From: Crocinitomicaceae bacterium
Lineage (GTDB): Bacteria > Bacteroidota > Bacteroidia > Flavobacteriales_D > Crocinitomicaceae
NCBI GenBank assembly: GCA_034680045.1
Contig: JAXITO010000003.1
Span: forward strand, 37,411 to 101,410
DNA length: 64,000 bases
Direction: 5' to 3'
The notes under the pieces were generated by a model that made no database searches, was not told the DNA's origin, and worked only from the letters and a program-made list of their open reading frames with translations. This document shows, piece after piece, positions 6,461 to 34,549 of the stretch. The position numbers were made by a program, and so were the translations under genes. Within the stretch, counting starts at the first letter, position 1. The number at the start of each line of letters is the position of its first letter.

Positions 6461-6838
6461 ATGGCTGATTTAAAGCAAATTGCAGAAACGTTGGTAAACC
6501 TTACAGTAAAAGAAGTAAGTGAATTGGCAACTATTATGAAAGACGAGTATGGCATCGAGCCTGCTGCTGCTGCTCCAGTAATGATGGCTGGTGCTGCTGT
6601 TGGTGGTGGCGAAGCTGCTGCTGAGCAAACTGAGTTTGATGTGATCCTCAAAGCTGGTGGTCCTAACAAACTTGCAGTAGTTAAACTTGTAAAAGAATTG
6701 ACTGGTAACGGTTTGAAAGAATCTAAAGACCTAGTTGATGCAGCACCTTCTACATTGAAAGAAGGCGTATCTAAAGATGAGGCTGAAGGCCTCAAAAAGT
6801 CTCTTGAAGAGGCTGGTGCTGAAGTAGAAGTTAAGTAA
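6461..6838 (+). CDS. rplL: 50S ribosomal protein L7/L12
   Basis: Ala-rich hinge [21 protein letters not shown] and a C-terminal domain [17 protein letters not shown]. Confidence 0.97.
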
Positions 6839-6853
6839 TTCGATTCAGGATAT

Positions 6854-6898
6854 ACAGGAAAGGCACCGCCGAAAGGCGGGTGCCTTGTCCTGTTTTTT
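6854..6898 (+). terminator. rplL-rpoB intergenic hairpin plus T-run (attenuator/terminator)
   Basis: CAGGA-AGGCACCGCC-GAAA-GGCGGGTGCCT-TCCTG followed by TTTTTT. It occupies the same position as the E. coli rplL-rpoB attenuator. Confidence 0.7.
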
Positions 6899-6943
6899 GC
6901 ATGTTGATTTCAACAGAGTACAAAACATTAAAAAAAACAAGCC

Positions 6944-10753: not shown

Positions 10754-10785
10754 TTCAAAATACTAACGTAAATAGTCGAGATCAA

Positions 10786-15084
<4,299 letters not shown>

Positions 15085-15104
15085 GCCAAATGATTTATAA
15101 GTTT

Positions 15105-15135
15105 AAAAGGCGGTCTGCAAAGACCGCCTTTTTTT
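15105..15135. terminator. Bidirectional intrinsic terminator shared by rpoC and recG
   Basis: AAAA-GGCGGTCT-GCAA-AGACCGCC-TTTTTTT. The recG stop codon lies within the T-run. Confidence 0.8.
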
Positions 15136-17230
15136 ATGAGATTCTTCCCCAGTTGGGTTTGTTCTTCAACACTTCTCGCAATGCCTGATTCAGTAAGGCG
15201 TTTTCGGGCGCAACCAGTTGGGCATCAGTTGCAAGAATTGCGCGTGCTTTTTCGCGTGCCAACTGAACTAATTGACCATCTTTTGCTAAATCGGCAATTT
15301 TGAGGGCGAGTGCGCCGCTTTGTTGGGTTCCCATGAGGTCGCCAGGGCCTCGCAATTGCAAGTCTACTTCTGCGAGAACGAAGCCATCATTACTGGCCAC
15401 CATCGTATCCATTCGCTTTTGTGCTTCTTTGGAAATGCCGTCACCGGTCATTAAAATACAATAGGATTTTTCGGCGCCACGGCCCACGCGTCCGCGCAAT
15501 TGGTGCAATTGGGAGAGGCCAAAACGCTCTGCACTTTCAATGACCATAACCGATGCGTTCGGGACATTTACCCCCACTTCAATCACAGTAGTGGCAACCA
15601 TAATATGCTTTTGGCCCTGCACAAATTCTTGCATGGCTGCTTCTTTGTCAGCAGGTTTCATTTTGCCATGTACCATACTGATTTGATAACCTAAGGGCTT
15701 GAAGAACTCCTCAATTTGAGCATAACCATCCTCTAAATTTTTAAAGTCAAGTTTTTCAGATTCTTGGATCAGTGGATAGACAATATAGGCCTGCCTACCC
15801 AATTGCAGTTGTTCATGGATAAACGTCAGGAGTTTGTCGCGGTGGTTTTCGCGGCGGTGAATCGTATGAATAGGCTTTCTTCCGGGTGGCAATTCATCAA
15901 TTACAGAAACATCAAGATCGCCGTAAAAGGTCATGGCGAGGGTTCTCGGGATGGGTGTGGCAGTCATGATCAGGACATGTGGAGGCGTTGTGTTTTTACG
16001 CCACATTTTCGCGCGTTGAGCTACTCCAAATCGATGTTGTTCATCGATGACAACCAAACCTAGATTTTTAAATTGAACGGTGTCTTCTAGCAAGGCATGG
16101 GTGCCAATAAGTAAGTCAATTTCGCCAGATAACAAGCCTTCATGAATTCTAGTGCGTTCTGCTTTTTTAGTTGACCCTGTAAGAAGGGCAACTTTGATAT
16201 CCATATCTCTGAGTAGTTCTGAAATACCAATAAAATGTTGGTTGGCTAAGATCTCGGTAGGTGCCATAAGCGCTCCTTGAAGCTCGTTTCCTTTGGCTAA
16301 TAGCAGGCAAAGCAAGGCAACGAGTGTTTTGCCACTGCCAACATCACCTTGAAGTAAGCGGTTCATGTGCGTGCCTTCACCTAGGTCTTTTCTGATTTCT
16401 TTTAAAACCCTTTTTTGTGCGCCCGTTAGTTCAAAAGGTAGATGGTGCTCATAAAAATCCATAAAAGCGTCACCAACTTCTTTGATCGGGTATCCCTTCA
16501 GTTTTTGGCTGCGCACCCCTTTGCGCAATAATAATTCGAGTTGTAAAAAGAATAATTCTTCCCACTTGAGTCGATACCGAGCTGCTTTGATAAGGGTTTC
16601 TGAACTCGGCTGATGAATTTCTCGGAGTGCCTTGATGCGCGGCAGCAAGTTGAGTTCCGTACAAATTAGAGGTGGGAGTGTTTCAGGAATTTGATTGGCG
16701 AGTTGTTCAAATAGATTGCCAACGAGTTTACTTAATCCTTTGCTGTGCAATCCTATGTGTTGGCATTTTTCAGTACTAGGGTAAAAAGCTTCAAAACCTT
16801 TTCGTTCCAATCCGGGTACAACTTTGAGCAATTCAGGATGCGGAATATTCCAGTTATTTTGGAAAAACTTGGGCTTGCCAAAAACAATATATTCGTCTTG
16901 GACATTGAGGTTTCCCTTGATCCACTGAAAACCCTGAAACCAAACTAGGTCGATGGTTCCTGAGCCATCGCTGAAACGCCCAAGAAGTTTTTTTTGTCGG
17001 CCGCTGCCTATTTCACTAATGTGGGTCAGACGACCTTTAAGTTGGACGTATTGATCTTCGGCATTGATGAGCGCAATGTCATGGAAAGCACTACGGTCTT
17101 GGTAGCGGTAAGGGAAATGATAGAGTAAATCTTGGAACGTATAAATTCCGAGTTCGTCTTGAAGTACTTGCGCTTTTTGGGGCCCAACTCCTTTTAAATA
17201 GGCAATAGGCGTTGCGAGTAGCGCGTTCAT
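15134..17230 (-). CDS. recG: ATP-dependent DNA helicase RecG
   Basis: 698 aa. Walker A GDVGSGKT, DEQHRFG box, and a wedge-domain N-terminus. Confidence 0.95.
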   Translation of the reverse strand: MNALLATPIAYLKGVGPQKAQVLQDELGIYTFQDLLYHFPYRYQDRSAFHDIALINAEDQYVQLKGRLTHISEIGSGRQKKLLGRFSDGSGTIDLVWFQGFQWIKGNLNVQDEYIVFGKPKFFQNNWNIPHPELLKVVPGLERKGFEAFYPSTEKCQHIGLHSKGLSKLVGNLFEQLANQIPETLPPLICTELNLLPRIKALREIHQPSSETLIKAARYRLKWEELFFLQLELLLRKGVRSQKLKGYPIKEVGDAFMDFYEHHLPFELTGAQKRVLKEIRKDLGEGTHMNRLLQGDVGSGKTLVALLCLLLAKGNELQGALMAPTEILANQHFIGISELLRDMDIKVALLTGSTKKAERTRIHEGLLSGEIDLLIGTHALLEDTVQFKNLGLVVIDEQHRFGVAQRAKMWRKNTTPPHVLIMTATPIPRTLAMTFYGDLDVSVIDELPPGRKPIHTIHRRENHRDKLLTFIHEQLQLGRQAYIVYPLIQESEKLDFKNLEDGYAQIEEFFKPLGYQISMVHGKMKPADKEAAMQEFVQGQKHIMVATTVIEVGVNVPNASVMVIESAERFGLSQLHQLRGRVGRGAEKSYCILMTGDGISKEAQKRMDTMVASNDGFVLAEVDLQLRGPGDLMGTQQSGALALKIADLAKDGQLVQLAREKARAILATDAQLVAPENALLNQALREVLKNKPNWGRIS

Positions 17231-20357: not shown

Positions 20358-20380
20358 GCCAAAAACAATATTTTTAAGAA

Positions 20381-20408
20381 GCCTGGGTGTTTGCACCCGG
20401 GCTTTTTT
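20381..20408 (+). terminator. Hairpin plus T-run after the binding-protein gene
   Basis: GCCTGGGTG-TTTG-CACCCGGGC (one G-T pair) followed by TTTTTT. No clear TAnnTTTG box lies before the next gene, so partial read-through is likely. Confidence 0.6.
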
Positions 20409-20444: not shown

Positions 20445-23228
20445 ATGAAAAAGCAACTTTTTTTATTCTTTTCTTTCCTATCAAGCGTCACTTTTTTACA
20501 AGCGCAAGTCTTAGAATTGAATCTGGCTTTTCCGACGGTGAACGATGTTGTAACCATCACCTATGATGCCACACAAGGAAATGCTGCGTTGGTTGGTCAA
20601 TCACAAATTTATTGTCATGCCGGGCTCATCACTTCTGCCAGCACTTCGCCTACCAACTGGCAATTTGTTCAAGGAAACTGGGGAGTAGCTGATCCAGAAG
20701 TAGCCATGACCAATATTGGCAACAATAAACACACTATTACAATAGACATCGATCAATTTTATGGTTTCCCTGTCGGAACAAATGTTTTGAAATTTGCATT
20801 TGTTTTCAGAACTGCAAACGGTAGTTTGGTCGGTAGATCTGCAGATGGTAGCGACATCTATTATGACATCTATCCCGTCAATGCGGGTTTACTTGCCAGT
20901 TTCTTTCACCCGACGGCTGGTACAATTTTAGATATCAATGAACAACTTGCCATTGATGCTGCGGCTAACCAGCCTTCAACACTAACGTTAAAAGAAGACG
21001 GCGTTGTTTTGCAAACGTTGAGCAATGCGACCCAACTCAATTACAACCTTACGGCCACAAGTGCCGGAACACATCTTTTAGAATTCATTGCCGACAACGG
21101 CACAACACAAATCATCGATACTGCATATTACACCGTGAACCCTATTGTGGTTCCTCAAAACCCTCCTTATAGCAATTTGCAAAACGGAATCAACTACATC
21201 AACGATACAACTGTCGTTTTGCAATTACATGCTCCTCAGAAAGAACATATTTATGTCATTGGAGATTTCAATTCTTGGACACCAACGACGAACTATCATA
21301 TGAACCTCTCCACCAACAATACTACTTGGTGGTTGGAAATAACTGGCCTCACGGCTGGTCAAAAATACGGGTATCAATACCTCATCGACGGCAATATGCG
21401 TTTTGCCGACCCACTGAGCACGCTCATTTTGGATCCAAATAACGACAACAACATAGGCGCTGCAACCAATCCTACACCGCATCCATATCCAACTGGTCAA
21501 ACAACAGGTTTTGTCACTGTTATGCAACCAGGTGCAACACCTTATAACTGGGTGGTTCCAAACTATGCTGCTCCAGCGAATAAAGATTTAGTAATTTATG
21601 AATTGTTGGTTCGTGACTTCGTCGCTAAACACAATTACCAAACACTTATTGACACACTAGATTACCTTAGCAAACTAGGTATCAACGCCATTGAACTCAT
21701 GCCTCCAGGAGAATTTGAAAACAACGAGAGTTGGGGCTACAATCCTTCATTCCACATGGCACTGGACAAATACTATGGCACTCCCGAAAAGTTTAAAGAA
21801 TTTGTAGATTCATGTCATGCACGTGGCATTGCAGTAATTGTCGATATGGTACTTAATCATGCATTTGGTCAAAACCCAATGGTAAACATGTATTGGGATG
21901 CTGCTAATTCCCGCCCAGCAGCAAATAACCCTTGGTTTAACGCTATTTGCCCGCATGAGCCCTATTGCTGGGGTTATGATTTTGACCACACAAGACCTGT
22001 AGTTCAACAATACATCGATCAAGTGAATCGCTATTGGGTAGAAACCTACAACATTGATGGCTTCCGTTTCGACTACACAAAAGGATTTATCAATAATGCC
22101 AACGGCTACAGTATGGAGCGCATCAATTTGCTCAAGCGCATGGCCGACGAAATTTGGGCTTACAAACCAAATACGTATATCATTTTAGAGCATTGGTGCG
22201 ACAACTCCGAGGAAGAGCAACTAGCTGATTACGGCATGATGCTCTGGGGAAATGTAACACATGGATATCAAGAAGCACTGATGGGCTACACCAGCACGAG
22301 TAATATAAGTTCAGGTATTTATACGAACCGAGGCTGGGCTTTGCCGCATTTAGTAAGCTACGCAGAGAGTCACGACGAAGAACGCACCATGTTTAAAGCA
22401 TTAACCTATGGAAATAATACCAATAGTTCTCACAATGCACGTGAATTATACACTGCATTGGGCAGAGCTCAAGCACTAGGCGTCATTTTTCTCACGCAAC
22501 CTGGTCCACGAATGCTCTGGCAATTTCAAGAATTAGGCTATGATATCTCTATAGATGTACCATGTAGGGTATGCAATAAGCCTATTTTGTGGAATTATTA
22601 TACACAAGCAAGAAGAAGACAACTCTATGATGTTTATGCGGCAACGCTTGCCCTTAGAAATGATTACGAAACCTTCCGTTCATTGAATTTTCAATATAGT
22701 CTGACAGGAGCAATTAAGCGCGTCAACATGAATCATAGCAGCATGAATGGTGTCTCTTTGGCTAATTTTGCCGTTACAACTCAAAGTGGCAGTGCTAATT
22801 TTCAGCATGCCGGATGGTGGTATGAGTACTTTAGCGGGGATAGCCTCAATGTAATAACAACAACCGATCCAATTAGTCTTGAACCAGGTGAATTCCGCAT
22901 TTATACAGATGTCAAGTTGGCTCAACCTGAGATTACCGATGCGCCTGTATCTGTAGATGAATTAATGGTGTCTGCATTTGAATTGAAGGTATTCCCTAAC
23001 CCAACAAGCGAAAGTATTAAAATTAGTTTTTCATCCCTTGGAATAGCTCCTTTTGATATCTTACTTTTAAATCAGTCCGGTCAAGTTGTATTGCAACGAA
23101 AAGGCACGAGTAACAATGGCGAAAACCTAATTTCTTTTGATTTAAAAGATTTTCCTGCTGGCGACTACCACTTTTTGGTAAAAGTGGGGAATGCAACTGC
23201 CAATGAAGGCTTTATTAAAATAGAATAA
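20445..23228 (+). CDS. GH13 alpha-amylase-family enzyme with an N-terminal accessory domain, a CBM48/E-set-like module and a T9SS C-terminal sorting domain
   Basis: Start moved to MKKQLFLFFSFLSSVTFLQAQ (signal peptide). GH13 regions: I VDMVLNHA, II GFRFDYTKG, III ILEHW, IV YAESHDE. C-terminal tail FPNPTSESIKISF...GDYHFLVKV. Confidence 0.85.
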   Translation: MKKQLFLFFSFLSSVTFLQAQVLELNLAFPTVNDVVTITYDATQGNAALVGQSQIYCHAGLITSASTSPTNWQFVQGNWGVADPEVAMTNIGNNKHTITIDIDQFYGFPVGTNVLKFAFVFRTANGSLVGRSADGSDIYYDIYPVNAGLLASFFHPTAGTILDINEQLAIDAAANQPSTLTLKEDGVVLQTLSNATQLNYNLTATSAGTHLLEFIADNGTTQIIDTAYYTVNPIVVPQNPPYSNLQNGINYINDTTVVLQLHAPQKEHIYVIGDFNSWTPTTNYHMNLSTNNTTWWLEITGLTAGQKYGYQYLIDGNMRFADPLSTLILDPNNDNNIGAATNPTPHPYPTGQTTGFVTVMQPGATPYNWVVPNYAAPANKDLVIYELLVRDFVAKHNYQTLIDTLDYLSKLGINAIELMPPGEFENNESWGYNPSFHMALDKYYGTPEKFKEFVDSCHARGIAVIVDMVLNHAFGQNPMVNMYWDAANSRPAANNPWFNAICPHEPYCWGYDFDHTRPVVQQYIDQVNRYWVETYNIDGFRFDYTKGFINNANGYSMERINLLKRMADEIWAYKPNTYIILEHWCDNSEEEQLADYGMMLWGNVTHGYQEALMGYTSTSNISSGIYTNRGWALPHLVSYAESHDEERTMFKALTYGNNTNSSHNARELYTALGRAQALGVIFLTQPGPRMLWQFQELGYDISIDVPCRVCNKPILWNYYTQARRRQLYDVYAATLALRNDYETFRSLNFQYSLTGAIKRVNMNHSSMNGVSLANFAVTTQSGSANFQHAGWWYEYFSGDSLNVITTTDPISLEPGEFRIYTDVKLAQPEITDAPVSVDELMVSAFELKVFPNPTSESIKISFSSLGIAPFDILLLNQSGQVVLQRKGTSNNGENLISFDLKDFPAGDYHFLVKVGNATANEGFIKIE

Positions 23229-23233
23229 AGTTC

Positions 23234-24661
23234 ATGTTCTACAGGTTCCGGTTTTTACCTCTTTTATTTTTTTGGACGAAGTTTATCTCGGCTCAAATTC
23301 CGCAACCGGCTTTTAATTGGGCATTTATCCAAGGTGAAGTGGCAACTGTTCATATAGACATTGACCCTGACTCCTTGAATTTATTACTCGGAGATAGCTT
23401 ATATGCCGCGCACGAATTTATGGCTACCGTTAGCTATCAAAGTTCACTCTTGAACCAAACCATCGATAGTATTGGTTTTAGGGCACGCGGCAACACCTCC
23501 TTGGCTTCTCAAAAAAAGTCCTTTAAAGTCGATTTCAATAGGTTTATTTCGGGTCAGAAATTCCAAGGTTTGGAAGAAATGAATTTGAATGGCGAACACA
23601 ACGATGTCTCTATTATGCGCACCTACCTCGCGCAGCATTTGATGAGAGGTGCAGGGGTGCCTTCGTCCAGAACGAGCTATATTCAACTTTATGTCAATAA
23701 CGAATACAAAGGCTTATATATCAACCTAGAGCACATCGACGACGAATTTTTAGACCTCCGCTTTCCGGGCCAAGCCAATGGCAATCTTTGGAAATGTGCT
23801 TATGGCGCAGATTTGAATTGGTGGGGTTCTAATCCGACGAGTTATCAGGATGTTTATGACTTGAAGACCAATCAAGACAGCGCAGATTATACTGCGCTTG
23901 TTCATTTCATTGACGTGCTAAATAATACGCCGGCAAGTAGTTTTGTTTGTGCCATCCAAGAAGTCATGGATGTAGATTTATTCATACGCACGATTGCGTT
24001 GGAAATACTCATGGGGCAATGGGACGGCTATGCCTACAATAAAAACAATTACTTTTTGTACCAGCGCGAGAGCGATGGCAAGATGGTTTACCTTTCCTAT
24101 GATCTAGACAATACTTTTGGAATCGATTGGTTTGGTATCAATTGGGCTTTGCGCAACATTTACAATTGGGCGCCAAGTAACCAAGCGCGGCCGCTCTACA
24201 CCAAATTATTGGCCGTACCATATTTTAAAGATCGGTTTACCTACCACCTTACCGATATTTTAAGTTCTGTTTGGGATGTATCAAGTTTACAAACAGTTCT
24301 TGAGCAAAAACAACAATTGATAAGCCCTGCCGCGCTAGCCGACGACTACAAAGGCTATGATTACGGCTTTACAGACCAAGATTTTTTAGATGCCCTTCAA
24401 GTGACTTGGGGTGCACATGTCAAGTCAGGGATCATTCCCTATTTACAAAACCGCAAAACAAGCGCGCTTTCGCAACTCAATACTTATCAGGCCTTGCCAA
24501 ATCCTTGTACAATTGGTTTGGATGAAAATGCAGGAACGAATGTAAAATTACTTTTTGTAACCGATATTTTGGGCAGAGAAATTGATCCAAACACCAAAAA
24601 TTGCATTAAAATTTTGAACTTTGAAAATGGAACCCAACAACGCATTTATGAAATGGATTAA
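23234..24661 (+). CDS. CotH-family protein (atypical kinase fold), secreted, with a probable short T9SS-type C-terminal tail
   Basis: Signal peptide ending ISAQ. CotH hallmark blocks: FRARGNTSLASQKKSFKVDF, VSIMRTYLAQHLMRGAGVPSSRTSYIQLYVNNEYKGLYINLEHIDDEFL, and NNYFLYQRESDGKMVYLSYDLDNTFG. The C-terminus VKLLFVTDILGREI...ILNFENGTQQRIY resembles a sorting tail. Confidence 0.75.
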   Translation: MFYRFRFLPLLFFWTKFISAQIPQPAFNWAFIQGEVATVHIDIDPDSLNLLLGDSLYAAHEFMATVSYQSSLLNQTIDSIGFRARGNTSLASQKKSFKVDFNRFISGQKFQGLEEMNLNGEHNDVSIMRTYLAQHLMRGAGVPSSRTSYIQLYVNNEYKGLYINLEHIDDEFLDLRFPGQANGNLWKCAYGADLNWWGSNPTSYQDVYDLKTNQDSADYTALVHFIDVLNNTPASSFVCAIQEVMDVDLFIRTIALEILMGQWDGYAYNKNNYFLYQRESDGKMVYLSYDLDNTFGIDWFGINWALRNIYNWAPSNQARPLYTKLLAVPYFKDRFTYHLTDILSSVWDVSSLQTVLEQKQQLISPAALADDYKGYDYGFTDQDFLDALQVTWGAHVKSGIIPYLQNRKTSALSQLNTYQALPNPCTIGLDENAGTNVKLLFVTDILGREIDPNTKNCIKILNFENGTQQRIYEMD

Positions 24662-26543
24662 CCTTACACTTTGTCTTCTTTTTACTTTCTTAGCTTATAC
24701 CCAAGGATTCAAACACGTAGAACCAAGCAATTGGTGGGTAGGGATGGAGCACCATCGCGTACAGGTATTGCTACACGGTCAAGAAATTGCAAAATATAAA
24801 GTGGAGGTTTCAGGCCTCACTATCCTAGAAGAAATCCGAACAGAAAACCCCAACTATATTTTTGTCACGCTCGAAACAAAAGACAAGGTTGCGGGCACGT
24901 ATCCAATTCGTCTAATGGATAAGAAAAAAATCATCGCAACGCATGATTTTAAGCTAGAAGAACGCATTGAAAATAGCAAGTATCGCCAGAGTTTCAATAG
25001 TTCAGATGTCATGTATTTGTTAATGCCAGATCGTTTTGCAAATGCCAATGAGGGTTTAGATACGCATCCTGATACCAAAGAGGCCGCTGACCGTTCCAAC
25101 CCAAGCGGGCGCCATGGCGGCGACATCATAGGAATCGTGCAGCGTTTAAGTTACATCAAAGAATTGGGTGCCACCACCATCTGGACCACTCCCTTACTCG
25201 AGGACAACGAACCAACTTATTCTTATCATGGTTATGCGCAATCTGATTTGTATAAAATTGATCCACGATATGGCAATAATTCTTGGTTTAAGGAAATGGT
25301 CTTGGAAGCGCACCGTCAAGGCTTGAAGGTCATCAAGGATGAAGTGCCAAACCATTGGTCGAGCAAGCACTGGATGATTCAAGATCTGCCCACTGCCACC
25401 TGGATTCATCAGTTTGATCAGTTTACGCGTTCAAGCTACCGCACCACCACGCAATTTGACCCTTATGCTTCCAAAGCAGATCAAAAAGCATCTGCCGATG
25501 GTTGGTTTGATACGACCATGCCTGATATGAATCAGCAAAATCCGTTGTTGCTGACTTATCTGATTCAAAATACCATTTGGTGGATAGAATACGCCCATCT
25601 GGATGGCTTGCGCGTCGATACCTACTCGTATAATGACAAAGATGCAGTTGCTCAATGGACAGAAGCCATCATGAACGAATATCCCAACTTGAATATCGTT
25701 GGCGAAGTCTGGATGCACGACCAAGCACAAATGTCATTTTGGCAAAAGGACAGCCCACTAGGTGCGCTTCAAGGTTTCAATAGCCAAATGCCTTCTGTCA
25801 TGGATTTCACCTTACACGACGCCATGATGCAAGCATGGAAAGAACAAGAGCAAGGTTGGGACCAAGGCATGGTGCGTTTTTATGAGAATTTTACGCAAGA
25901 TTACCTTTATGCAAATCCACAAAACTTGTTGGTTTTCATGGAGAACCACGATACGCAAAGATTCAATGAATCTTACCCAGATATCGCTGATTACAAAATG
26001 GCCCTGGCTTTGATTGCCACTACTAGAGGGATTCCACAAATTTATTACGGTTCTGAAATCGGCATGAAAGGAAGCAAAGCAGTTGGCGATGCAGATATCC
26101 GCAGAGACTTTCCAGGTGGTTGGGCGTCAGATCAGCATACTGCATTTTGCAGCAATGAAGACACAAAATGCAGGGCGTATCAGACCGGAAGAACACCTGA
26201 AGAAGAAGCTTATTTTCAGTATACCAAAGCATTGCTCAACTGGAGAAAAGGTCAAAAGGTTATTCACGAAGGAAAGCTCTTGCAATATGTGCCCCAAAAC
26301 AACGTGTATGTGTATTTCCGCTACCTAGAGCCCATTAAAGAAATGGGTCAGCCAGCTGAGGTGGTTATGGTGGTCATCAATAATTCGACTAAAGAGCAAA
26401 CGCTTTCATGGTCTCGCTTTGCAGAGGGTTTGCATGGATTTGAAAAAGGGAAGGACGTACTCAACAACCAAACCTTTGACTTCGAACAGCCCAGCGGTAC
26501 CATCCCGGCCAAAACTTCTTATATCATCATACTACACAATTGA
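24648..26543 (+). CDS. GH13 alpha-amylase / neopullulanase-like enzyme (cyclomaltodextrinase-type N-domain), probably periplasmic
   Basis: Start moved to MKWINLTLCLLFTFLAYTQG. N-domain EPSNWWVGM. GH13 regions: I DEVPNH, II GLRVDTYSY, III VGEVW, IV FMENHDTQR. The start overlaps the CotH stop by 14 nt. Confidence 0.85.
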   Translation: MKWINLTLCLLFTFLAYTQGFKHVEPSNWWVGMEHHRVQVLLHGQEIAKYKVEVSGLTILEEIRTENPNYIFVTLETKDKVAGTYPIRLMDKKKIIATHDFKLEERIENSKYRQSFNSSDVMYLLMPDRFANANEGLDTHPDTKEAADRSNPSGRHGGDIIGIVQRLSYIKELGATTIWTTPLLEDNEPTYSYHGYAQSDLYKIDPRYGNNSWFKEMVLEAHRQGLKVIKDEVPNHWSSKHWMIQDLPTATWIHQFDQFTRSSYRTTTQFDPYASKADQKASADGWFDTTMPDMNQQNPLLLTYLIQNTIWWIEYAHLDGLRVDTYSYNDKDAVAQWTEAIMNEYPNLNIVGEVWMHDQAQMSFWQKDSPLGALQGFNSQMPSVMDFTLHDAMMQAWKEQEQGWDQGMVRFYENFTQDYLYANPQNLLVFMENHDTQRFNESYPDIADYKMALALIATTRGIPQIYYGSEIGMKGSKAVGDADIRRDFPGGWASDQHTAFCSNEDTKCRAYQTGRTPEEEAYFQYTKALLNWRKGQKVIHEGKLLQYVPQNNVYVYFRYLEPIKEMGQPAEVVMVVINNSTKEQTLSWSRFAEGLHGFEKGKDVLNNQTFDFEQPSGTIPAKTSYIIILHN

Positions 26544-26544
26544 T

Positions 26545-29007
26545 ATGCGTTTCAGTTTTATATTTTTTCTCATATTATTTGGGCTGAATACGGTCGTTGC
26601 CCAAAATTCAAACCGCCAGTTTGTAAAAATCGAACTTACCGAAAAAGGCGCAGAAATTCAGGTTTCTGATGGCAAATATGTTGTGGCTTTGCTTTCTGAG
26701 CATATCATCCAAACCACTTTCTTTCCGATAGGAAGCGCTGAAAAAATGGACAGTTCACATGCGGTGCTTTTGCAAGCTCAAGTAAATCCTTGGGAACTTA
26801 AAGAAATACAAACCGAAGCCGTAAAAGAAGGTAAAACCAAAATGTACATTCTTAAAAGTGGCGCTATTGGGGTTAAGATCATTACAAATCCGTTTGAGGT
26901 TTCCTATTTCTATAAAACCACCGAAGTATCCGAAGCGCAGGGCTATTATTTTGACCAAACCCCAAAAATTGAATTCGATTTAAGTGCCGAGGAGCAACTC
27001 ATGGGCGCCGGTGCACGCGTGTTGGGCATGAACCGCCGTGGTTATCGCTTGCAACTTTATAACCGCGCACACTACGGTTACGAGACCCATTCAGAGCTCA
27101 TGAATTTCACGATGCCTATTGTGCTTTCGGATAAGGGCTACGCCATACATTTTGATAATCCGCAAATTGGTTGGCTCGACCTCGATTCAAAAAAGCAAAA
27201 CAAACTTACTTATGAAGTCATTGGAGGGCCTTTGCGTTATCAGGTGGTTTTTTCAGACGATTGGAAAGACCTTACCAACTCCCTAACGTCTATGCTGGGC
27301 CGTCAGCCGCTTCCCGCACGCTGGACACTCGGAAATTTTGCCAGTCGCTTTGGCTACCATTCTGAAACCGAAGCAAAGCAGGTTGTTGCCGAATTTAGAA
27401 AACTGCAAATTCCTTTAGACGCTATTATTTTTGACCTTTATTGGTTTGGGAAAGACATTCAAGGTACGCTTGGCAACTTGGAATTCTTTAGAGATTCATT
27501 TCCGAATGGAGAACAAATGATCGCCGATTTCAGAAGTCAGAATGTCAAGACTATTCTCATCACCGAACCGTTCATCCTCACAACTTCCAAAAAATGGCAA
27601 GAAGCCGACCGCATGAAGTTGCTTGGCATGGATACACTTGGCAATTCATACCGCTACGATTTTTATTTTGGCAACACAGGTCTTGTTGACCTGTACAAGC
27701 CGGAAGCACGCGTTTGGTTTTGGGATATTTACAAACAGTTTCACGCCTACGGCGCAGCTGGTTTTTGGGGAGACCTCGGCGAACCAGAAGTGCATCCGAC
27801 CAAATTAAAGCATGGCGACAAATGGGCCGATGAAGTTCATAACATTTACGGCCACGACTGGGCGCGTTTGCTTTATGAAGGCTACAGAAAAGACTATCCC
27901 ACAGAAAGGCCCTTCATTTTAATGCGCGCCGGTTATTCTGGCTCGCAGCAATACGGAATGGTGCCATGGTCCGGAGACGTCAGCAGAACCTGGGGCGGTC
28001 TCAAACCACAAATGGAAATTACATTGCAAATGGGTCTGCAAGGAATGGCCTACATGCACTCCGACTTAGGTGGTTTTGCAGGTGCCAACAAAGACCCAGA
28101 GCTCTATGTGCGTTGGTTGCAATACGGAGTTTTCCAGCCGGTTTTTAGACCACATGCCCAGCAAGAAGAGCCGAGCGAAGCTATTTTTAAAGATGCCCAG
28201 ACCAAAGCATTGGCTAAAGCAGCCATTGAGTTGCGCTATCAAATGTTGCCATACAATTATAGTCTTGCCTACGAAAATCACAAGGCTGGTACACCGCTGC
28301 TCAGACCTATTTTCATGGAATTCCCAACGGCTAAATGGTCATTTTCACAAACAGAAACCTATATGTGGGGACCATCATTTTTGGTGCACGCCATTACCGA
28401 TTCAATAACATCTTCAAAGGAAAAGGATTATCAAACAAAGGTCCCTGCGGATGCATCCTGGTTTGATTTTCATACAGGTCGTTTGGTTGTGAAATCAAAA
28501 GTAAATATGACCAATAATGGAAACTACAATGTAGTGTCTACAACAAAAACGCTCGATCATATTCCAATTTTTGTCCGCTCTGGATCTTTTATTCCGATGA
28601 GCCCAATTATTCAAAGTACAGAGCAATACCGAGATTCAGCCGCAATTTTACATTTTTATATCGATCCAAATGTGGGTTCTGAATCGACTTCGTTTGTTTG
28701 GTACGAAGACGACGGTGCTACTTATGATGCTGAGGCAAAGGGTTTAGCTAAGAAACTACATTGTGCTGCCACTACCCAAAGCAAAAGTTGTTCGCTTACC
28801 TTTACCCCAGAATTGGGCGCCAATCTTTGGGAGAACTATTTTCAGTTTTCATTGCTTATCCATACGCCGGTATGTCCCAAAGAAGTGATCCTAAATGGTC
28901 AGAAAGCAGCTTTCAAGTTTGATAAAGAAGCAAAAAAAGTAAGCATTAGTGATTTTCCAAAATTGAAAATTGAACAAAAACCAATGCAATTGATGTTGAA
29001 ATGGTGA
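26545..29007 (+). CDS. GH31 alpha-glucosidase (SusB-like)
   Basis: Start moved to MRFSFIFFLILFGLNTVVAQ, 1 nt after the upstream stop. GH31 motifs: GFWGDLGEPE (nucleophile region), PWSGDV, and HSDLGGF. Confidence 0.85.
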   Translation: MRFSFIFFLILFGLNTVVAQNSNRQFVKIELTEKGAEIQVSDGKYVVALLSEHIIQTTFFPIGSAEKMDSSHAVLLQAQVNPWELKEIQTEAVKEGKTKMYILKSGAIGVKIITNPFEVSYFYKTTEVSEAQGYYFDQTPKIEFDLSAEEQLMGAGARVLGMNRRGYRLQLYNRAHYGYETHSELMNFTMPIVLSDKGYAIHFDNPQIGWLDLDSKKQNKLTYEVIGGPLRYQVVFSDDWKDLTNSLTSMLGRQPLPARWTLGNFASRFGYHSETEAKQVVAEFRKLQIPLDAIIFDLYWFGKDIQGTLGNLEFFRDSFPNGEQMIADFRSQNVKTILITEPFILTTSKKWQEADRMKLLGMDTLGNSYRYDFYFGNTGLVDLYKPEARVWFWDIYKQFHAYGAAGFWGDLGEPEVHPTKLKHGDKWADEVHNIYGHDWARLLYEGYRKDYPTERPFILMRAGYSGSQQYGMVPWSGDVSRTWGGLKPQMEITLQMGLQGMAYMHSDLGGFAGANKDPELYVRWLQYGVFQPVFRPHAQQEEPSEAIFKDAQTKALAKAAIELRYQMLPYNYSLAYENHKAGTPLLRPIFMEFPTAKWSFSQTETYMWGPSFLVHAITDSITSSKEKDYQTKVPADASWFDFHTGRLVVKSKVNMTNNGNYNVVSTTKTLDHIPIFVRSGSFIPMSPIIQSTEQYRDSAAILHFYIDPNVGSESTSFVWYEDDGATYDAEAKGLAKKLHCAATTQSKSCSLTFTPELGANLWENYFQFSLLIHTPVCPKEVILNGQKAAFKFDKEAKKVSISDFPKLKIEQKPMQLMLKW

Positions 29008-29021
29008 TAACTTTTTCTTTG

Positions 29022-29034
29022 TGTCAAGATGACA
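29022..29034. promoter_or_regulatory. Palindrome TGTCA-AGA-TGACA (candidate operator)
   Basis: Perfect 5+5 inverted repeat with a 3-nt spacer, 16 nt upstream of the susC -7 box. The half-sites are the same as at 19161-19173. Confidence 0.4.
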
Positions 29035-29050
29035 TTTACAAAAAATCAAA

Positions 29051-29058
29051 TATATTTG
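29051..29058 (+). promoter_or_regulatory. Candidate -7 promoter box (TATATTTG) for susC/susD
   Basis: Matches TAnnTTTG, 37 nt upstream of the ATG at 29095. Confidence 0.45.
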
Positions 29059-29094
29059 GGTGATTAATCTGTTATAAACGCTAAAACAAGAACT

Positions 29095-32000
29095 ATGCAA
29101 AAGAAAACTACTACAAGTTTTTTTGCCTTCTTGGTGTTTTTTAGTTTTTCGATTTTTGCTTTTGCACAAACCGGAATACGAGGAATCATCACAGATGCTG
29201 CAGGCACTCCACTCTTTAATGCCTCGGTGTTAGTAGAAGGTCAGGGTAAGGGTGCTGTATCCGATGACAAAGGATACTATGAAATTACAGGCCTCAAGGC
29301 CGGAACTTATAACTTAGTTTATAAGTTTATGGGCTTTTCGCCTCAAAATGATCAAGTTACGGTTGTTGCCAATCAAATGACCACGAATGATTTTCAGTTC
29401 GCCTCCAAAATTCAAGATGTAGGTGATGTAGTCGTGATTGGATACGGTACCCAGCGCACTAAAGACCTTACTGGTTCGGCAACTGTCATCAACGAGAAAA
29501 ACTTTGTACAAGGATCTTTAGCCACGCCAGAACAACTCGTTATGGGTAAAGTAGCTGGATTAAAAGTTACCTCAAACGACGGTGCGCCTGGTTCAGGAAG
29601 CACACTACGTTTACGCGGCGGAACCTCCATCAATGCTTCCAATGATCCGCTGATTGTAGTAGATGGTGTTCCTTTAGATAATGGTGGTATTGCCGGTGCA
29701 GCCAATCCATTGTCTTTGATTAACCCGAACGATATTGCTTCATTTGTGGTTTTAAAAGATGCTTCTGCGACAGCAATTTACGGTTCTAGGGCAGCAAATG
29801 GGGTTATACTCATTACCACTAAACGTGGCGCTGCGTCAAACAATGTAAAAGTTGTACTAGACTCCAAAACTTCGGTTTCTACGATCGCTAAATATTTTGA
29901 TGTTCTAAGTGCAGACTCACTTCGAAATCTCGTCAATGCCATCGGATCCAATCAACAAAAAGGATTGCTCGGAGACGCAAGCACAGATTGGCAAAGACAA
30001 GTTTTTCGCAGCGCTGTCGTGACCGACAACAACGTGTCTATTACTGGAGGGATTAAAAACTTCCCATATCGTTTATCGGTCGGTAACCGCATCGACAACG
30101 GTATATTGAAAAGAGACCAATTTGCGCGCACCACGGTAAGCCTCAACATGAACCCAAGTTTGCTAGATAAAACCTTACAAATCGAAGCAAACATGAAATA
30201 TGTTCAGACCGCATCTTTTTTTGCAAATCGCGGTGCATTGGGTGCAGCTTTTTTTGACCCAACGCAGCCTGTTTATTCTGGTTCAGAAGCATATGGCGGT
30301 TACTTTGAATGGATCGATGGCAACAAACCAAATACTCTTTCAGCTCGCAACCCACTTGGTCTTATTGAACAATCTACTGATCAAAGCAAAGTTAACCGTG
30401 CAATCGCTAATGCCAAACTCACCTATCATTTACCTTCGCTTCCAGCTTTGAAAGCCACGGTCAATGTTGGTGGAGATTTCTCCGAAGGTACAGGCTACAA
30501 TATCACACCTGCATCATCTGCCTCTGGTTACTTTTCTCAAGGAAGATATTCTGAATACCGAACCACTAAGACAAACAAGTTGTTTGAATCTTACTTGAGC
30601 TATAATTCTGGGGCTAAATGGGAAAAACAAACCCTAGAGCTAGTTGGTGGTTATTCTTACCAAGATTGGGATACCTACAGCCCGAATAACCCAACATGGA
30701 ATGAAGTCCAAGATAGTATTATCTCACCTGAGGCTCCTTTTCCATTCTATACTCGAAATGTTTTGATGTCATACTATGGCCGAGCAATTTATAATTACAA
30801 CGGCAAGTATGTAGTCAATGTTTCTGTGCGTCGTGACGGTTCGTCTCGTTTCAGCCCCGCTACACGTTGGGGTGTTTTCCCTGCTGCTTCAGCTGCATGG
30901 CTTATTTCCGAAGAAAAGTTCCTTAAGAATAGCAAAGTTGTCAATATGCTCAAGCTTCGAGCAGGTTGGGGTATGACCGGACAGCAAGATGGTATTGGAG
31001 ATTACGCCTATATCGGAAATTATTTCCAGGGTGCTACAAATGCTCAATATGCTTTCGGCGGTCAATATTATCAAGTTCTTCGCCCTGCCGGATTCGATGC
31101 GAATCTGAAGTGGGAAACCACCACCTCGTATAACTTTGGTTTAGATTTCGGATTTAAAAATGACCGCTTCTCTGGGAGTCTAGATGTCTATCAAAAAGAT
31201 ACCAAAGATTTACTTGCCACTGTACCTGTTCCTGCCGGGACAAATTTCACCAATGAGATTTTAACTAACGTCGGTGCGATGCAAAACCGCGGTTTAGAAA
31301 TTTCAGTGAATACTGGCATCATTGCTAAAAAAGACATGCGTCTAGATTGGTCAATCAATGGAACTTACAATCAAAATACAGTAGTTAGATTGTCTCAGGT
31401 CAATGACAGCACTTCACCAGGTGTGCTGATCGGTGGCATCGGAGGAGGTATTGGCAATACCGTACAAGTTCATCAAATTGGTTATCCAACTTATACTTTC
31501 TTTGTCCTAGAACAACAATACGATTCTCAAGGTCGAATCATAGAAGTAGGTTCTTTAGCTAATATCGACTTAAACGGCGATGGTCAGATTACAACTTTGG
31601 ATAAATGGAAAGACACCAATGCTTTTGTGGATCAAAATGGCGATGGTATTATCAATGTAAAAGACCGCTACTATGCTGGTCAAGCTGCACCAAAAATGTT
31701 CTTTGGAACGGCCCTAAATTTCCAATATAAAAAATGGTATGTAGGTTTCTCAGCGCGTGCTGAACTCGGTGCAACAATTTATAACAACATTCATTCCAAT
31801 AGCGCGACTTTCATGACAGTTGATGGTACTAAAAAGTATTTAAACAACATCAGCTCCCTTTATTACCAAGATGAAGTCCAACGTACGACTTCTAATCAAT
31901 TAATGAGTGACCATTACCTCGAAAAAGCCAATTTCTTGCGTATGGACTTCATCAATGTTGGTTATAATTTTGGAAAGCTTGGCTTGGCCAAAGAAAAAGT

Positions 32001-32145
32001 CGGGCTTAATGTAAACTTTGTAGTTCAGAATGCATTTGTACTCACCCAATATTTAGGTCAGGATCCTGAAGTTGGTGGCGGAATCGACAACAATTTTTAC
32101 CCTCGTCCGCGCGTATATTCAGTTAACCTTACTTTTGATTTCTAA
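29095..32145 (+). CDS. susC: SusC/RagA-family TonB-dependent outer-membrane transporter
   Basis: 1016 aa. Signal peptide, a carboxypeptidase-regulatory-like N-domain (GIITDAAGTPLFNASVLVEG), the TonB box/plug VVVIGYGTQRTKDLTGS, and a terminal ...NLTFDF. Confidence 0.9.
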   Translation: MQKKTTTSFFAFLVFFSFSIFAFAQTGIRGIITDAAGTPLFNASVLVEGQGKGAVSDDKGYYEITGLKAGTYNLVYKFMGFSPQNDQVTVVANQMTTNDFQFASKIQDVGDVVVIGYGTQRTKDLTGSATVINEKNFVQGSLATPEQLVMGKVAGLKVTSNDGAPGSGSTLRLRGGTSINASNDPLIVVDGVPLDNGGIAGAANPLSLINPNDIASFVVLKDASATAIYGSRAANGVILITTKRGAASNNVKVVLDSKTSVSTIAKYFDVLSADSLRNLVNAIGSNQQKGLLGDASTDWQRQVFRSAVVTDNNVSITGGIKNFPYRLSVGNRIDNGILKRDQFARTTVSLNMNPSLLDKTLQIEANMKYVQTASFFANRGALGAAFFDPTQPVYSGSEAYGGYFEWIDGNKPNTLSARNPLGLIEQSTDQSKVNRAIANAKLTYHLPSLPALKATVNVGGDFSEGTGYNITPASSASGYFSQGRYSEYRTTKTNKLFESYLSYNSGAKWEKQTLELVGGYSYQDWDTYSPNNPTWNEVQDSIISPEAPFPFYTRNVLMSYYGRAIYNYNGKYVVNVSVRRDGSSRFSPATRWGVFPAASAAWLISEEKFLKNSKVVNMLKLRAGWGMTGQQDGIGDYAYIGNYFQGATNAQYAFGGQYYQVLRPAGFDANLKWETTTSYNFGLDFGFKNDRFSGSLDVYQKDTKDLLATVPVPAGTNFTNEILTNVGAMQNRGLEISVNTGIIAKKDMRLDWSINGTYNQNTVVRLSQVNDSTSPGVLIGGIGGGIGNTVQVHQIGYPTYTFFVLEQQYDSQGRIIEVGSLANIDLNGDGQITTLDKWKDTNAFVDQNGDGIINVKDRYYAGQAAPKMFFGTALNFQYKKWYVGFSARAELGATIYNNIHSNSATFMTVDGTKKYLNNISSLYYQDEVQRTTSNQLMSDHYLEKANFLRMDFINVGYNFGKLGLAKEKVGLNVNFVVQNAFVLTQYLGQDPEVGGGIDNNFYPRPRVYSVNLTFDF

Positions 32146-32155
32146 TAGTTGAACG

Positions 32156-33793
32156 ATGAAAAGATTTGTAACATACACTATTCTTGCTAGCGTCCTTTTA
32201 TTAGGCGCTTGCGGCAAAAACCTCAACCAATCGCCAAAATATGGTCTCAATGCTGAGGCTGTTTACAGCGACCCTGATAACTATATTAGAGTGCTTGCTA
32301 AATTATATGCTGGAATGTCCATGACCGGTAATCAAGGCCCAGCTGGTCAGGCTGATATCGCTGGTATTGACGAAGGTTTTTCTGCCTATATGCGCGTGCT
32401 TTGGAATCTTCAAGAATTACCAACCGACGAGGCTAAATGTACTTGGACTGATCCAGGAATTCCTGAATTGAATAAAATCCAATGGAATGCCGATAACGTT
32501 TGGGTTAAAGGAATGTATTACCGCATTTTTTATCAGATTACGCTTTGCAACGAGTTCATCTGGCAGGCGAGTGATGAAAGACTCAATACACGTGGATTTT
32601 CTGCCGCACAACTCAATTCCATCAAGCAAATGCAAATTGAAGCCCGTTATTTACGTGCTTTGTCTTACTACCATGCTATGGATTTATTTGGAAATGTTCC
32701 TTTCGTTACCGAAAAAGATCGCGTTGGTGCATTTTATCCAGAACAAATTCAACGCGCCGATTTATTTGCCTACATAGAATCTGAGCTCAAAGCAATTGAA
32801 GATTTATTGGTTCCAGCTTCTCAAGTGGTATATGGTAGAGCTTCTCAAAGTGCTGCTCATGCCCTAATGGCAAAAATGTATTTGAACGCTGAAACGTATT
32901 TAGGTGCTGGTAATAGTCGAAATACCGAATGTGCTGCCTACTGCGAGAAAATCATCAACTCTAATCAGTTTCAATTAGATGATGTTTATCAAGATCTATT
33001 TTTAGCAGACAACCATACTTCACCTGAAATTATCTTTCCGGTTGTTTACGACGGCTTGTATGCTCAAACATGGGGTGGAACAACCTTCTTAGTGTGCTCT
33101 ACACTTGGCGGTTCCATGAACGCAGCTGAATATGGTGTAAATGGTAAATGGGCAGGCAACCGCACAACACGTTCTTTAGTTCGCTTGTTCAAAGAAGATT
33201 TTGACCAATACTACACATCGCAAGAAATAGAAACAGGTTTTCCAGATATGAAAAATCCTAAACCAATAGATTCTCGTTGGTTGTTCTACACTAAAGGCCA
33301 AAATCCAAATATGCTAAGTTTATCAACCTTTGCACAAGGTTATCCAAATCCAAAATTTAAGAACAAAACAAAAGCTGGTTTGAATGGGTCAAACAATGCG
33401 ACTTCAGCACACGTAGACATCGATTTACCATTATTTCGTTTAGGAGATGTATTCTTAATGTATGCTGAAGCAAAATTCCGTTCAGGTGATGAAGCCACCG
33501 CTCTTCTTTATATGAATAAAATTAGAGAGCGCGCTTATGGCAATACTGCTTACAATTATTCTTCTCTTACTTTAAAAGATTTTCTTGATGAAAGAGCAAG
33601 AGAATTGAATTGGGAGGGTACCCGTAGAACTGACCTTATTCGTTTCAATAAGTTTACAAGTTCCGATTACGTTTGGGCCTTCAAAGGAGGAGATGCTTCA
33701 GGAATGGGTGTAAGTGATAAATACAATCTTTACCCGCTCCCAACCGCAGATATCGTACTTAATCCGAATTTACAACAGAATCCGGGTTACTAA
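32156..33793 (+). CDS. susD: SusD/RagB-family glycan-binding lipoprotein
   Basis: Lipoprotein signal LLLGAC. SusD-like TPR core (RALSYYHAMDLFGNVPF, FLMYAEA) directly downstream of susC. Confidence 0.9.
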   Translation: MKRFVTYTILASVLLLGACGKNLNQSPKYGLNAEAVYSDPDNYIRVLAKLYAGMSMTGNQGPAGQADIAGIDEGFSAYMRVLWNLQELPTDEAKCTWTDPGIPELNKIQWNADNVWVKGMYYRIFYQITLCNEFIWQASDERLNTRGFSAAQLNSIKQMQIEARYLRALSYYHAMDLFGNVPFVTEKDRVGAFYPEQIQRADLFAYIESELKAIEDLLVPASQVVYGRASQSAAHALMAKMYLNAETYLGAGNSRNTECAAYCEKIINSNQFQLDDVYQDLFLADNHTSPEIIFPVVYDGLYAQTWGGTTFLVCSTLGGSMNAAEYGVNGKWAGNRTTRSLVRLFKEDFDQYYTSQEIETGFPDMKNPKPIDSRWLFYTKGQNPNMLSLSTFAQGYPNPKFKNKTKAGLNGSNNATSAHVDIDLPLFRLGDVFLMYAEAKFRSGDEATALLYMNKIRERAYGNTAYNYSSLTLKDFLDERARELNWEGTRRTDLIRFNKFTSSDYVWAFKGGDASGMGVSDKYNLYPLPTADIVLNPNLQQNPGY

Positions 33794-33868: not shown

Positions 33869-34549
33869 CTAGAGTTGGATGCCATAAGAAATCCTTCCCA
33901 AAGGCTGGATTCCACTAGAACGTTCCCGCAAACCAATTTGTAATTTGAGACTTTGTTTTTTGGGTAGTTCTATTTGTGTGCCGATAAAATAGCGCCATTG
34001 CACGGTTGAACCGGTTACTAAAACCTCAGTTGGTGTGTATACGACATTTGCATTCCAGCGGTAAAAATGTTCGGCGCTGATTTGTGGACTCAATGGAAAA
34101 TTTTTGATATCATAGCTCAGGCTGAGTTTATTGCGCCAGATACTACTCATTTGTTTGCCAGTTTGTATGCTCCACTGTTGCGTAGAGCTCCAAGAAAGGT
34201 CTAGGCGCTTAGGGCCAAAGTCAAAAGCATCTAAAATAGAGATATCAGTACCAATTTGAAATCTTTGAGATAAGCGATCGGCTTGGAGTACAAACTGATC
34301 TCCTTTTTCATTGCTCACCAAACGGTAGGCACCCGTGATTTTGATTCCGTCGAGCACTTGATAAGTAGGCCCAACTTCAATATAAAGCCGGTCAAAACCT
34401 ACTCCTAGATTTTGACGTTCGCCAATTTCAAAGGAAGTCTTGAATGCTTTATTCCATTTTTTTGTGATACCTGCATCCAGCCAAAGACCGGTTTGCGCAC
34501 TCGCAATTTGGCAATAAAATAGGATGGGAAGGAGTAATTTTTTCATCAA
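33869..34549 (-). CDS. Predicted outer-membrane beta-barrel protein (DUF2490-like)
   Basis: Signal peptide ending ASAQ, alternating beta-strand pattern, aromatic-rich strands, ends ...ISYGIQL. The DUF2490 assignment is from memory of the family pattern and is not verified. Confidence 0.5.
   Translation of the reverse strand: MMKKLLLPILFYCQIASAQTGLWLDAGITKKWNKAFKTSFEIGERQNLGVGFDRLYIEVGPTYQVLDGIKITGAYRLVSNEKGDQFVLQADRLSQRFQIGTDISILDAFDFGPKRLDLSWSSTQQWSIQTGKQMSSIWRNKLSLSYDIKNFPLSPQISAEHFYRWNANVVYTPTEVLVTGSTVQWRYFIGTQIELPKKQSLKLQIGLRERSSGIQPLGRISYGIQL

Follow-up and report, generated by a model that had tools for sequence, protein, structure and literature searches.

What does a kinase-like protein of the CotH family do inside a polysaccharide utilization locus (PUL) for starch? 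The question is raised by a 64,000-nucleotide (nt) stretch of DNA from a Crocinitomicaceae bacterium (the window; positions 37,411 to 101,410 of the forward strand of contig JAXITO010000003.1, assembly GCA_034680045.1). An adjoining SusC/SusD pair is found here together with two glycoside hydrolase (GH) family 13 genes and one GH31 gene, which make up a Sus-like alpha-glucan PUL, and a CotH gene stands between the two GH13 genes (Pfam), as a first-pass annotation of the sequence had proposed. PUL models have room for transporters, binding proteins, glycoside hydrolases and regulators; a kinase-like enzyme is not among their parts. What is new is that an apparently intact CotH-type enzyme is fixed in the starch PUL across a bacterial family, and that its relatives with type IX secretion system (T9SS) sorting domains repeatedly lie beside GH13, GH92 and GH20 genes.

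CotH in the starch PUL

Searches returned more than 1,100 CotH homologues, and the top matches were proteins of 472–475 amino acids (aa), here called the short form, from metagenome-assembled genomes (MAGs) of Crocinitomicaceae and Flavobacteriales. Two orthologues with 54% and 65% CotH identity were found in an identical gene order: rpoC / recG / accA / ispE / T9SS protein / GH13-T9SS / CotH / GH13 / GH31 / SusC / SusD. CotH occupied the same position in all short-form loci (L001–L069, L071, L076 and L160). In a survey of 80 genome loci, wherever a short-form locus had sequence 3' of CotH, a SusA-like GH13 gene came directly after it, and this CotH-GH13 order held even where the upstream T9SS-tagged GH13 gene was missing and CotH was the first gene of the block. 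Flanks of 1.5 kb or more on both sides were available for 57 loci; in 51 of these a GH13 gene directly adjoined CotH, every short form included. Judged by gene order, CotH is shown to be a fixed component of the starch PUL across Crocinitomicaceae-type genomes (freshwater Bacteroidota), and the conservation in related PULs on which the first-pass annotation had staked its proposal was found. The synteny of rpoC-recG-accA-ispE with the PUL was kept down to about 50% CotH identity.

The genes GH13(T9SS)-CotH-GH13-GH31 form a block of four: the first two are 5 nt apart, the second and third overlap by 14 nt, and 1 nt separates the last two. The close packing described in the first-pass annotation was borne out to the nucleotide: the TAA of the T9SS-tagged GH13 gene ends at 23228 and, after 5 nt (AGTTC), the CotH ATG begins at 23234, while the CotH stop codon (24659–24661) overlaps by 14 nt the next GH13 gene, whose ATG at 24648, opening MKWINLTLCLLFTFLAYTQG, is in frame with the open reading frame (ORF) ending at 26543. 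A TTG at 24621 is an alternative start for this SusA-like GH13 gene and would extend the overlap to 41 nt. A pattern scan placed no terminator-like site at the junctions from the T9SS-tagged GH13 gene to the GH31 gene (overall counts of such sites were at chance). The spacing and the lack of a terminator-like site suggest that CotH is co-transcribed and translationally coupled with the GH13 genes. A sigma-70 promoter scan gave a result no different from that for shuffled sequence, the consensus being ill-suited to Bacteroidota promoters.

The protein matched PF08757 (E=5.4e-62; bit score 210.6, cut-off 23.8) over residues 83–384, corresponding to profile positions 2–300 of 322. A sequence search of the PDB gave B. 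cereus CotH (5jd9/5jda) as the sole match (E=2e-19), with 24% identity to the window protein. An AlphaFold model built on 36 orthologues had a mean predicted local distance difference test score (pLDDT) of 83 and a predicted template modelling score (pTM) of 0.80. When this model was searched with Foldseek, the same B. cereus structures were recovered with E=8e-18 and a template modelling (TM) score of 0.84–0.85 normalised to the target; the next matches, to the kinases HipA, PI3K, MavQ and CtkA, had E>1e-3. The family assignment, made earlier from three hallmark blocks recognised in the sequence, was confirmed by both profile and structure, and the three blocks were present and invariant across the orthologues.

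Residues K94/K95, E166, D264, N272, D290 and D292 were shared without change by B. cereus CotH, the 36 short-form orthologues and 9 relatives of the long form (HMMER, MAFFT). These include the catalytic and metal-binding positions K94/K95, D264, N272 and D290, whose retention the first-pass annotation had left as a question. In the B. cereus chain, D224 and D247 are 23 residues apart, the same spacing as D228 and D251 of B. subtilis CotH, and the B. subtilis mutants D228Q and D251A are inactive (PMC7821199). By alignment and spacing, D264 and D290 would correspond to B. subtilis D228 and D251. The ratio of non-synonymous to synonymous substitution rates (dN/dS) of CotH against its two closest orthologues was 0.08–0.10, compared with 0.03–0.12 for the neighbouring PUL genes; on these comparisons purifying selection on CotH is shown to match in strength that on the neighbouring enzymes. 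Because the catalytic-site residues are invariant and dN/dS is 0.08–0.10, the gene is taken to be functional, with its kinase machinery apparently under selection. We hold with high confidence that the protein is a CotH and that it belongs to the PUL. A reading of the gene as a truncated pseudogene was rejected, since over 60 orthologues keep the length of 472–475 aa and the tail motifs, and dN/dS lies near 0.09.

Long-form relatives and the ends of the protein

The closest relatives of the kinase domain outside the short form were Bacteroidota proteins of about 745–800 aa (the long form; 43–46% identity), in which CotH is followed by a lamin-tail domain (LTD; PF00932) and a Por_Secre_tail C-terminal domain (CTD), for example L083:9983–12229, L072:9986–12220 and L074:5908–8166. 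They share the catalytic residues of the window CotH and, with their lamin-tail domain and a T9SS sorting domain that is complete, are about 270 aa longer. Like the window CotH, they often adjoin GH13 genes or sit inside SusC/SusD starch loci. The order was SusC-SusD-...-GH13(T9SS)-CotH-GH13 in the Saprospiraceae loci L083 and L079, with stop/start overlaps in L083, and CotH-GH13(T9SS)-SusC-SusD in L070, L072 and L077; in L074, from Bacteroidales, CotH was followed after 4 nt by a GH13 gene with a carbohydrate-binding module of family 48 (CBM48). Unlike the window CotH, some long forms adjoin GH92, GH20, GH29 or unrelated genes.

A metagenome scan with the long-form alignment supplied 80 further loci, whose ORFs were screened by phmmer with GH13, GH31, GH92, GH20, GH29 and SusC/D queries, that is, for five GH families only. 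Flanks of 3 kb or more on both sides were present in 40 long-form loci, and in 15 of these a GH gene (GH13, GH92 or GH20) lay within 150 nt on the same strand. Pfam identified the arrangements GH92-GH92-CotH (L145 and L165), GH92-CotH (L154), CotH-GH20-GH92 (L137) and CotH-GH20-GH29 (L113). Elsewhere the genes next to the long form were unrelated ones (methyltransferase, PFOR, RF-1 and, in one case, a divergent GH9). The short form was a single clade in neighbour-joining trees, sister to the starch-PUL long forms L070, L072 and L077, and the GH13-, GH20- and GH92-adjacent long forms interleaved; CotHs beside GH13, GH92 and GH20 were about equally similar to one another (44–62% identity to that of L074). 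The short form appears to derive from a larger clade of T9SS-tagged proteins of about 750 aa. Judged from gene neighbourhoods, the CotH family repeatedly accompanies extracytoplasmic glycan-degrading operons without being bound to them, and the window gene would be its reduced form, fixed in one starch PUL. Shared ancestry within one genus was rejected as the sole cause, as the association recurs with other gene orders in Saprospiraceae, Bacteroidales and other Flavobacteriales.

Two observations on single long-form loci were made. The L079 starch locus carries three CotH genes, at 4369–7173 (+), 9998–12247 (+) and 14470–15873 (-). A 934-aa paralogue in this locus, with the architecture LTD-CHB_HEX_C-CotH-CTD, seems to lack equivalents of K94/K95, D264 and N272 (MAFFT) and may be a pseudokinase beside an intact kinase, reminiscent of the Fam20A/Fam20C pair discussed below. 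In L129 a glycogen/starch synthase gene (Glyco_transf_5; 13164–13985), a cytoplasmic alpha-glucan-related neighbour, lies about 1 kb downstream of a long-form CotH on the same strand.

At the C-terminus of the short form, the motifs NPC, D.LGR.I, KN and NG were kept in every orthologue, at 48–96% identity. The T9SS models PF18962 and TIGR04183 matched neither the whole CotH nor its isolated 63-aa tail, even at E<=10; the same models matched both upstream genes (4e-7 and 8e-11). Type A CTDs of the T9SS measure about 70–100 aa and have a seven-strand fold, the last strands of which are needed for secretion. The CotH tail, with about 50 aa from NPC to the end and three predicted strands (AlphaFold), is not a complete CTD. 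When a profile of 63 orthologous tails was compared with the CTDs of long-form CotHs by hhalign, the probability was 89% (E=2.4e-6) over the first 43 columns only, from the PNP to the G motif, and the alignment stopped before the C-terminal part of the long-form CTD; BLASTP of the single tail against the L083 CTD gave E=14. The T9SS-like tail of the first-pass annotation was only partly confirmed, with a partial alignment in the profile comparison and no match to the two family models. A profile made from the CTDs of the neighbouring GH13 genes did not recognise the tail (hhalign probability 3%), and a copy of that neighbour's domain was rejected as its source on this ground. The tail appears instead to be a shortened remnant of a T9SS sorting domain, still under selection, and the window CotH would have lost the lamin-tail domain and most of the CTD. 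Cys239 in the kinase domain and Cys425 at the start of the tail (in NPC) were invariant in all short-form orthologues; a Cys239–Cys425 disulfide tethering the tail is possible and would fit an extracytoplasmic location.

At the N-terminus, the first 20 residues were variable, hydrophobic and modelled at a pLDDT below 50, and were followed by Gln21, invariant in the 36 orthologues. The N-terminus has no lipoprotein cysteine. Signal peptidase I substrates with an N-terminal Gln are common in Bacteroidota, and CotH is predicted to be exported via Sec and cleaved before Gln21.

Proposed role and its alternatives

In the mechanism proposed here, CotH would be exported by Sec, cleaved before Gln21, and act outside the cytoplasm as an active phosphotransferase rather than a passive module. 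Since its sorting domain is truncated, it would probably be retained in the periplasm or envelope, together with the SusA-like GH13 that always follows it. Its generic role would be the phosphorylation of those proteins of the degradation machinery, whether in the envelope or secreted, that are expressed with it, in parallel with the patterning of the spore coat by CotH and the presumed role of cellulosomal CotH. Such a generic protein-phosphorylating role is favoured because the GH13-, GH92- and GH20-adjacent CotHs interleave in the tree, because near relatives among the CotHs belong to loci for glycans of different chemistry, and because the only proven CotH activity is a protein Ser phosphorylation that patterns a supramolecular assembly; a glycan-specific reaction is less likely. 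That CotH is catalytically competent and extracytoplasmic is moderately probable. The statement as a whole, of an active extracytoplasmic CotH phosphotransferase serving glycan breakdown by this mechanism, is put forward with reserve, and its most tentative part is that the substrate is a protein rather than a glycan.

Several points weigh against this proposal. What stands chiefly in the way of any catalytic model is the supply of ATP outside the cytoplasm: we know of no ATP source in the periplasm or outside the cell, and cellulosomal CotH presents the same puzzle. The correspondence with B. subtilis D228 and D251 was drawn from alignment and spacing, the export of CotH was read from its N-terminus by inspection, and the catalytic loop at residues 264–267 was modelled by AlphaFold at a pLDDT below 50. 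About 60% of the long forms had no adjoining gene from the five screened GH families, so the CotH family is not restricted to glycan loci, and the neighbour-joining trees carry no support values.

The Bacillus proteins (B. subtilis CotH; B. cereus 5JD9/5JDA) share with the window CotH the Pfam family, the fold and the catalytic Lys/Asp/Asn/Asp positions. Bacillus CotH works in the mother-cell cytoplasm, where it phosphorylates the Ser-rich coat proteins CotB and CotG (PMC7821199). It is thus a cytoplasmic protein with ATP available, whereas the window CotH has a predicted signal peptide, a C-terminal tail of about 55 aa and a place in a glycan operon, in an organism that, unlike Bacillus, is not a spore-former.

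The closest precedent is provided by the cellulosomal and CBM37-linked CotHs, in which an extracytoplasmic CotH is tied physically or genetically to a polysaccharide-degrading apparatus. CotH modules are fused to dockerins in bacterial and fungal cellulosomes, where their function is unclear (PMC12484212), and a CBM37-CotH of Ruminococcus albus 7, co-regulated with glycoside hydrolases, is up about 4-fold on cellulose, its role being unexplained (PMC4300822). The statement in the first-pass annotation that no role of CotH in glycan utilisation had been described has to be qualified by these reports; it held for PULs, in that no paper was found that links CotH with PUL, SusC/SusD, GH13, T9SS, Bacteroidetes or amylase, in a literature search whose coverage was incomplete and does not prove absence. 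The cellulosomal hosts are clostridia, ruminococci and anaerobic fungi, in which CotH is recruited through a dockerin or CBM and the substrate is the plant cell wall. The window CotH is instead recruited by operon membership, in a Bacteroidota SusC/SusD alpha-glucan locus, and its targeting domain is of T9SS origin. Pfam reported PF08757 only and no dockerin or CBM in the window CotH; its likeness to cellulosomal CotH is functional and contextual only.

Among eukaryotic enzymes, the Fam20 kinases (the protein kinase Fam20C, the xylose kinase Fam20B and the pseudokinase Fam20A) resemble CotH in having an atypical kinase fold and acting outside the cytoplasm on secreted proteins or glycans. They differ in being Golgi enzymes supplied with ATP by transporters, and the window CotH has no detectable sequence similarity to them; Fam20 did not head the Foldseek list of PDB matches to the CotH model, as CotH, HipA, PI3K and CtkA did. 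With the Sus system of B. thetaiotaomicron (SusA-G) the window PUL shares SusC, SusD, a SusA-like GH13, a SusB-like alpha-glucosidase, an outer amylase and surface binding proteins. The outer enzyme and binding protein are T9SS cargo in the window PUL and lipoproteins in B. thetaiotaomicron, and the alpha-glucosidase is of family GH31 in the former and GH97 in the latter. To our knowledge the canonical B. thetaiotaomicron Sus system has no kinase-like component.

One alternative concerns location and could be combined with any catalytic model. In this case CotH would still be T9SS cargo: the short tail would work as a secretion signal and bring CotH to the cell surface along with the T9SS-tagged GH13 and the 383-aa protein encoded upstream. 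Both of these upstream products are T9SS cargo, the motifs of the CotH tail are conserved, and the tail aligns with genuine CTDs of the long-form relatives. Set against this, neither T9SS model matches CotH, the tail with its three strands falls short of the size of a type A CTD, and its alignment ends before the C-terminal part of the CTD. Surface location by this route is regarded as fairly unlikely.

It is also conceivable that the kinase fold serves without catalysis, as a protein that binds or scaffolds substrate, nucleotide or partner enzymes, or as an adhesin to eukaryotic or algal surfaces in the manner of the CotH invasins of Mucorales. Such a module would suit an extracytoplasmic location that lacks ATP. 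The CotH proteins of Mucorales are surface ligands (PMC9973265), a structural role is also considered in the review of cellulosomal CotH (PMC12484212), and the L079 paralogue that seems to have lost K94, D264 and N272 indicates that non-catalytic copies exist beside PULs. A purely structural role is weakened by the invariance of the catalytic-site residues in the orthologues (48–96% identity), in the long forms (43–46%) and in B. cereus CotH (24%), and we judge it unlikely.

Phosphorylation of the alpha-glucan itself, or of imported malto-oligosaccharides, appears doubtful. Its effect might be to loosen granular starch, in the way of plant glucan-water dikinase, or to mark oligosaccharides so that they are retained. 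The strict neighbourhood with GH13 genes, the recurrent adjacency of its relatives to other GH genes and the intact catalytic residues would all agree with it. CotH is, moreover, distantly related to the Fam20 family (PMC7821199), in which Fam20B acts as a xylose kinase and the ancestral function is considered to be that of a glycan kinase (PMC7948968). The similarity and interleaving of the GH13-, GH92- and GH20-adjacent CotHs are, however, hard to square with sugar-specific active sites, and the sole CotH activity shown biochemically is protein Ser phosphorylation (PMC7821199). This reaction, too, would need an ATP donor outside the cytoplasm, where none is known, and the locus showed neither a phosphatase nor a phospho-sugar enzyme (Pfam). 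It is likewise improbable that the window CotH and the Bacteroidota CotH-LTD-CTD clade together are extracytoplasmic phosphotransferases acting on the glycan, possibly with a donor other than cytoplasmic ATP. In a related version CotH could be a general kinase of secreted proteins by which glycan-degrading machinery at the surface is put together or stabilised, in PULs as in cellulosomes.

That CotH is a passenger, trapped in the operon by chance and with no role in glycan use, would fit the many long forms that adjoin unrelated housekeeping genes, but is very improbable given that in all short-form loci, at identities as low as 48% and even without the upstream GH13, the gene keeps its position, that dN/dS is about 0.09, and that GH adjacency arose independently, with differing gene orders, in Saprospiraceae, Bacteroidales and Flavobacteriales.

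The occurrence of CotH in a starch PUL, and of its T9SS-tagged relatives beside GH genes, links cellulosomes, CBM37 systems and PULs as three extracellular glycan-degrading systems with the same unexplained accessory protein. The presence of CotH in cellulosomes and CBM37 systems was already known; its recruitment by operon membership and with a T9SS-type domain is new. The role of extracellular CotH and its phosphate donor now become approachable in Bacteroidota, where operons are simple and substrates defined. If the glucan or the proteins of the PUL are modified, this would be a new biochemical step in carbohydrate turnover in freshwater and other environments. If the glycan is phosphorylated, bacteria would for the first time be seen to have a counterpart of plant glucan-water dikinase or of Fam20B-type glycan kinases, and PUL models would gain a new enzymatic step.

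Features of the locus and its surroundings

Table 1 Features of the CotH gene and the surrounding PUL, in window coordinates
Feature	Position	Strand	Remarks
T9SS type A CTD protein, 383 aa	19206–20357	+	Por_Secre_tail E=7e-11; TIGR04183 E=8e-11
Terminator-like hairpin	20376–20407	+	Pattern scan; 14-bp stem, 7 GC pairs, T run
Secreted GH13 alpha-glucanase with CBM48 and T9SS CTD	20445–23228	+	Alpha-amylase 3.6e-23; CBM_48; Por_Secre_tail 5.6e-8; TIGR04183 4e-7
CotH-family kinase-like gene	23234–24661	+	ATG start; 475 aa and stop codon
Predicted Sec signal peptide, aa 1–20	23234–23293	+	By inspection only; mature start would be Gln21
Lys94-Lys95 of KKSF, candidate ATP-binding lysines	23513–23518	+	Aligned with K55/K56 of the B. 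cereus chain
Catalytic-loop equivalent, Asp264 to Asn272 (WDGYAYNKNN)	24023–24049	+	D264=D224 and N272=N229 of the B. cereus chain
Asp290-Leu-Asp292 (YDLDNTFG), metal-binding DFG equivalent	24101–24109	+	D290=D247 of the B. cereus chain
Conserved C-terminal tail, aa 420–475 (NPC..D.LGR.I..KN..NG)	24491–24658	+	Putative T9SS CTD remnant
SusA-like GH13 (cyclomaltodextrinase/neopullulanase type), predicted signal peptide	24648–26543	+	Alpha-amylase 1.9e-47; Cyc-maltodext_N; Cyc-maltodext_C
GH31 alpha-glucosidase, SusB-like	26545–29007	+	Glyco_hydro_31 1.2e-78
SusC-like TonB-dependent transporter	29095–32145	+	Plug; TonB_dep_Rec_b-barrel; CarboxypepD_reg
SusD-like glycan-binding lipoprotein	32156–33793	+	SusD_RagB 6.6e-33; SusD-like_3

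The T9SS C-terminal domain was the sole Pfam domain of the 383-aa protein, which is probably a candidate surface glucan-binding protein, a fast-evolving analogue of SusE/F. About a quarter of it was conserved in most related loci (tblastn coverage 0.20–0.27), and its orthologue in L004 had a faint SusF_SusE match. With a strong hairpin separating it from the GH13-CotH-GH13-GH31 block, the gene for this putative binding protein may be a transcription unit of its own or an attenuated one; the total of terminator-like sites was at chance level against shuffled sequence, and the hairpin is therefore suggestive only. No regulator gene was seen adjoining the PUL.

A search of the whole window with Rfam returned five tRNAs and nothing else. 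They form a cluster at the start of an ordinary conserved block ahead of the PUL (2096–15084), followed by ORFs consistent with tuf-secE-nusG-rplKAJL-rpoB-rpoC; rpoC was identified by Pfam in related loci, and the other names are assumed from the standard arrangement. A DUF2490 gene (33869–34549, -) lies 3' of the PUL in the window and in relatives, and another (L111:12315–13097, +) lies directly 3' of a long-form CotH in an otherwise unrelated locus.

Identity to related loci was mosaic along the PUL (20445–33793). The SusA-like GH13 was 74% identical to that of L006 and 96–98% identical to those of L007 and L025, and the GH31 was 88% identical to that of L006 and 68% to that of L008; CotH and the T9SS-tagged GH13 were 80–92% identical to their counterparts in all of L006, L007, L008 and L025. 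This pattern suggests recombination or allele exchange within the PUL. In nine loci (L015, L018, L023, L034, L042, L053, L054, L057 and L072) the Bacteroidota-type locus was found on contigs with foreign MAG labels (Sphingomonadales, Polynucleobacter, Akkermansia, Comamonadaceae and 'Chitinophaga pinensis'); with a SusC/SusD starch locus on these contigs, the labels are likely due to mis-binning or mislabelling.

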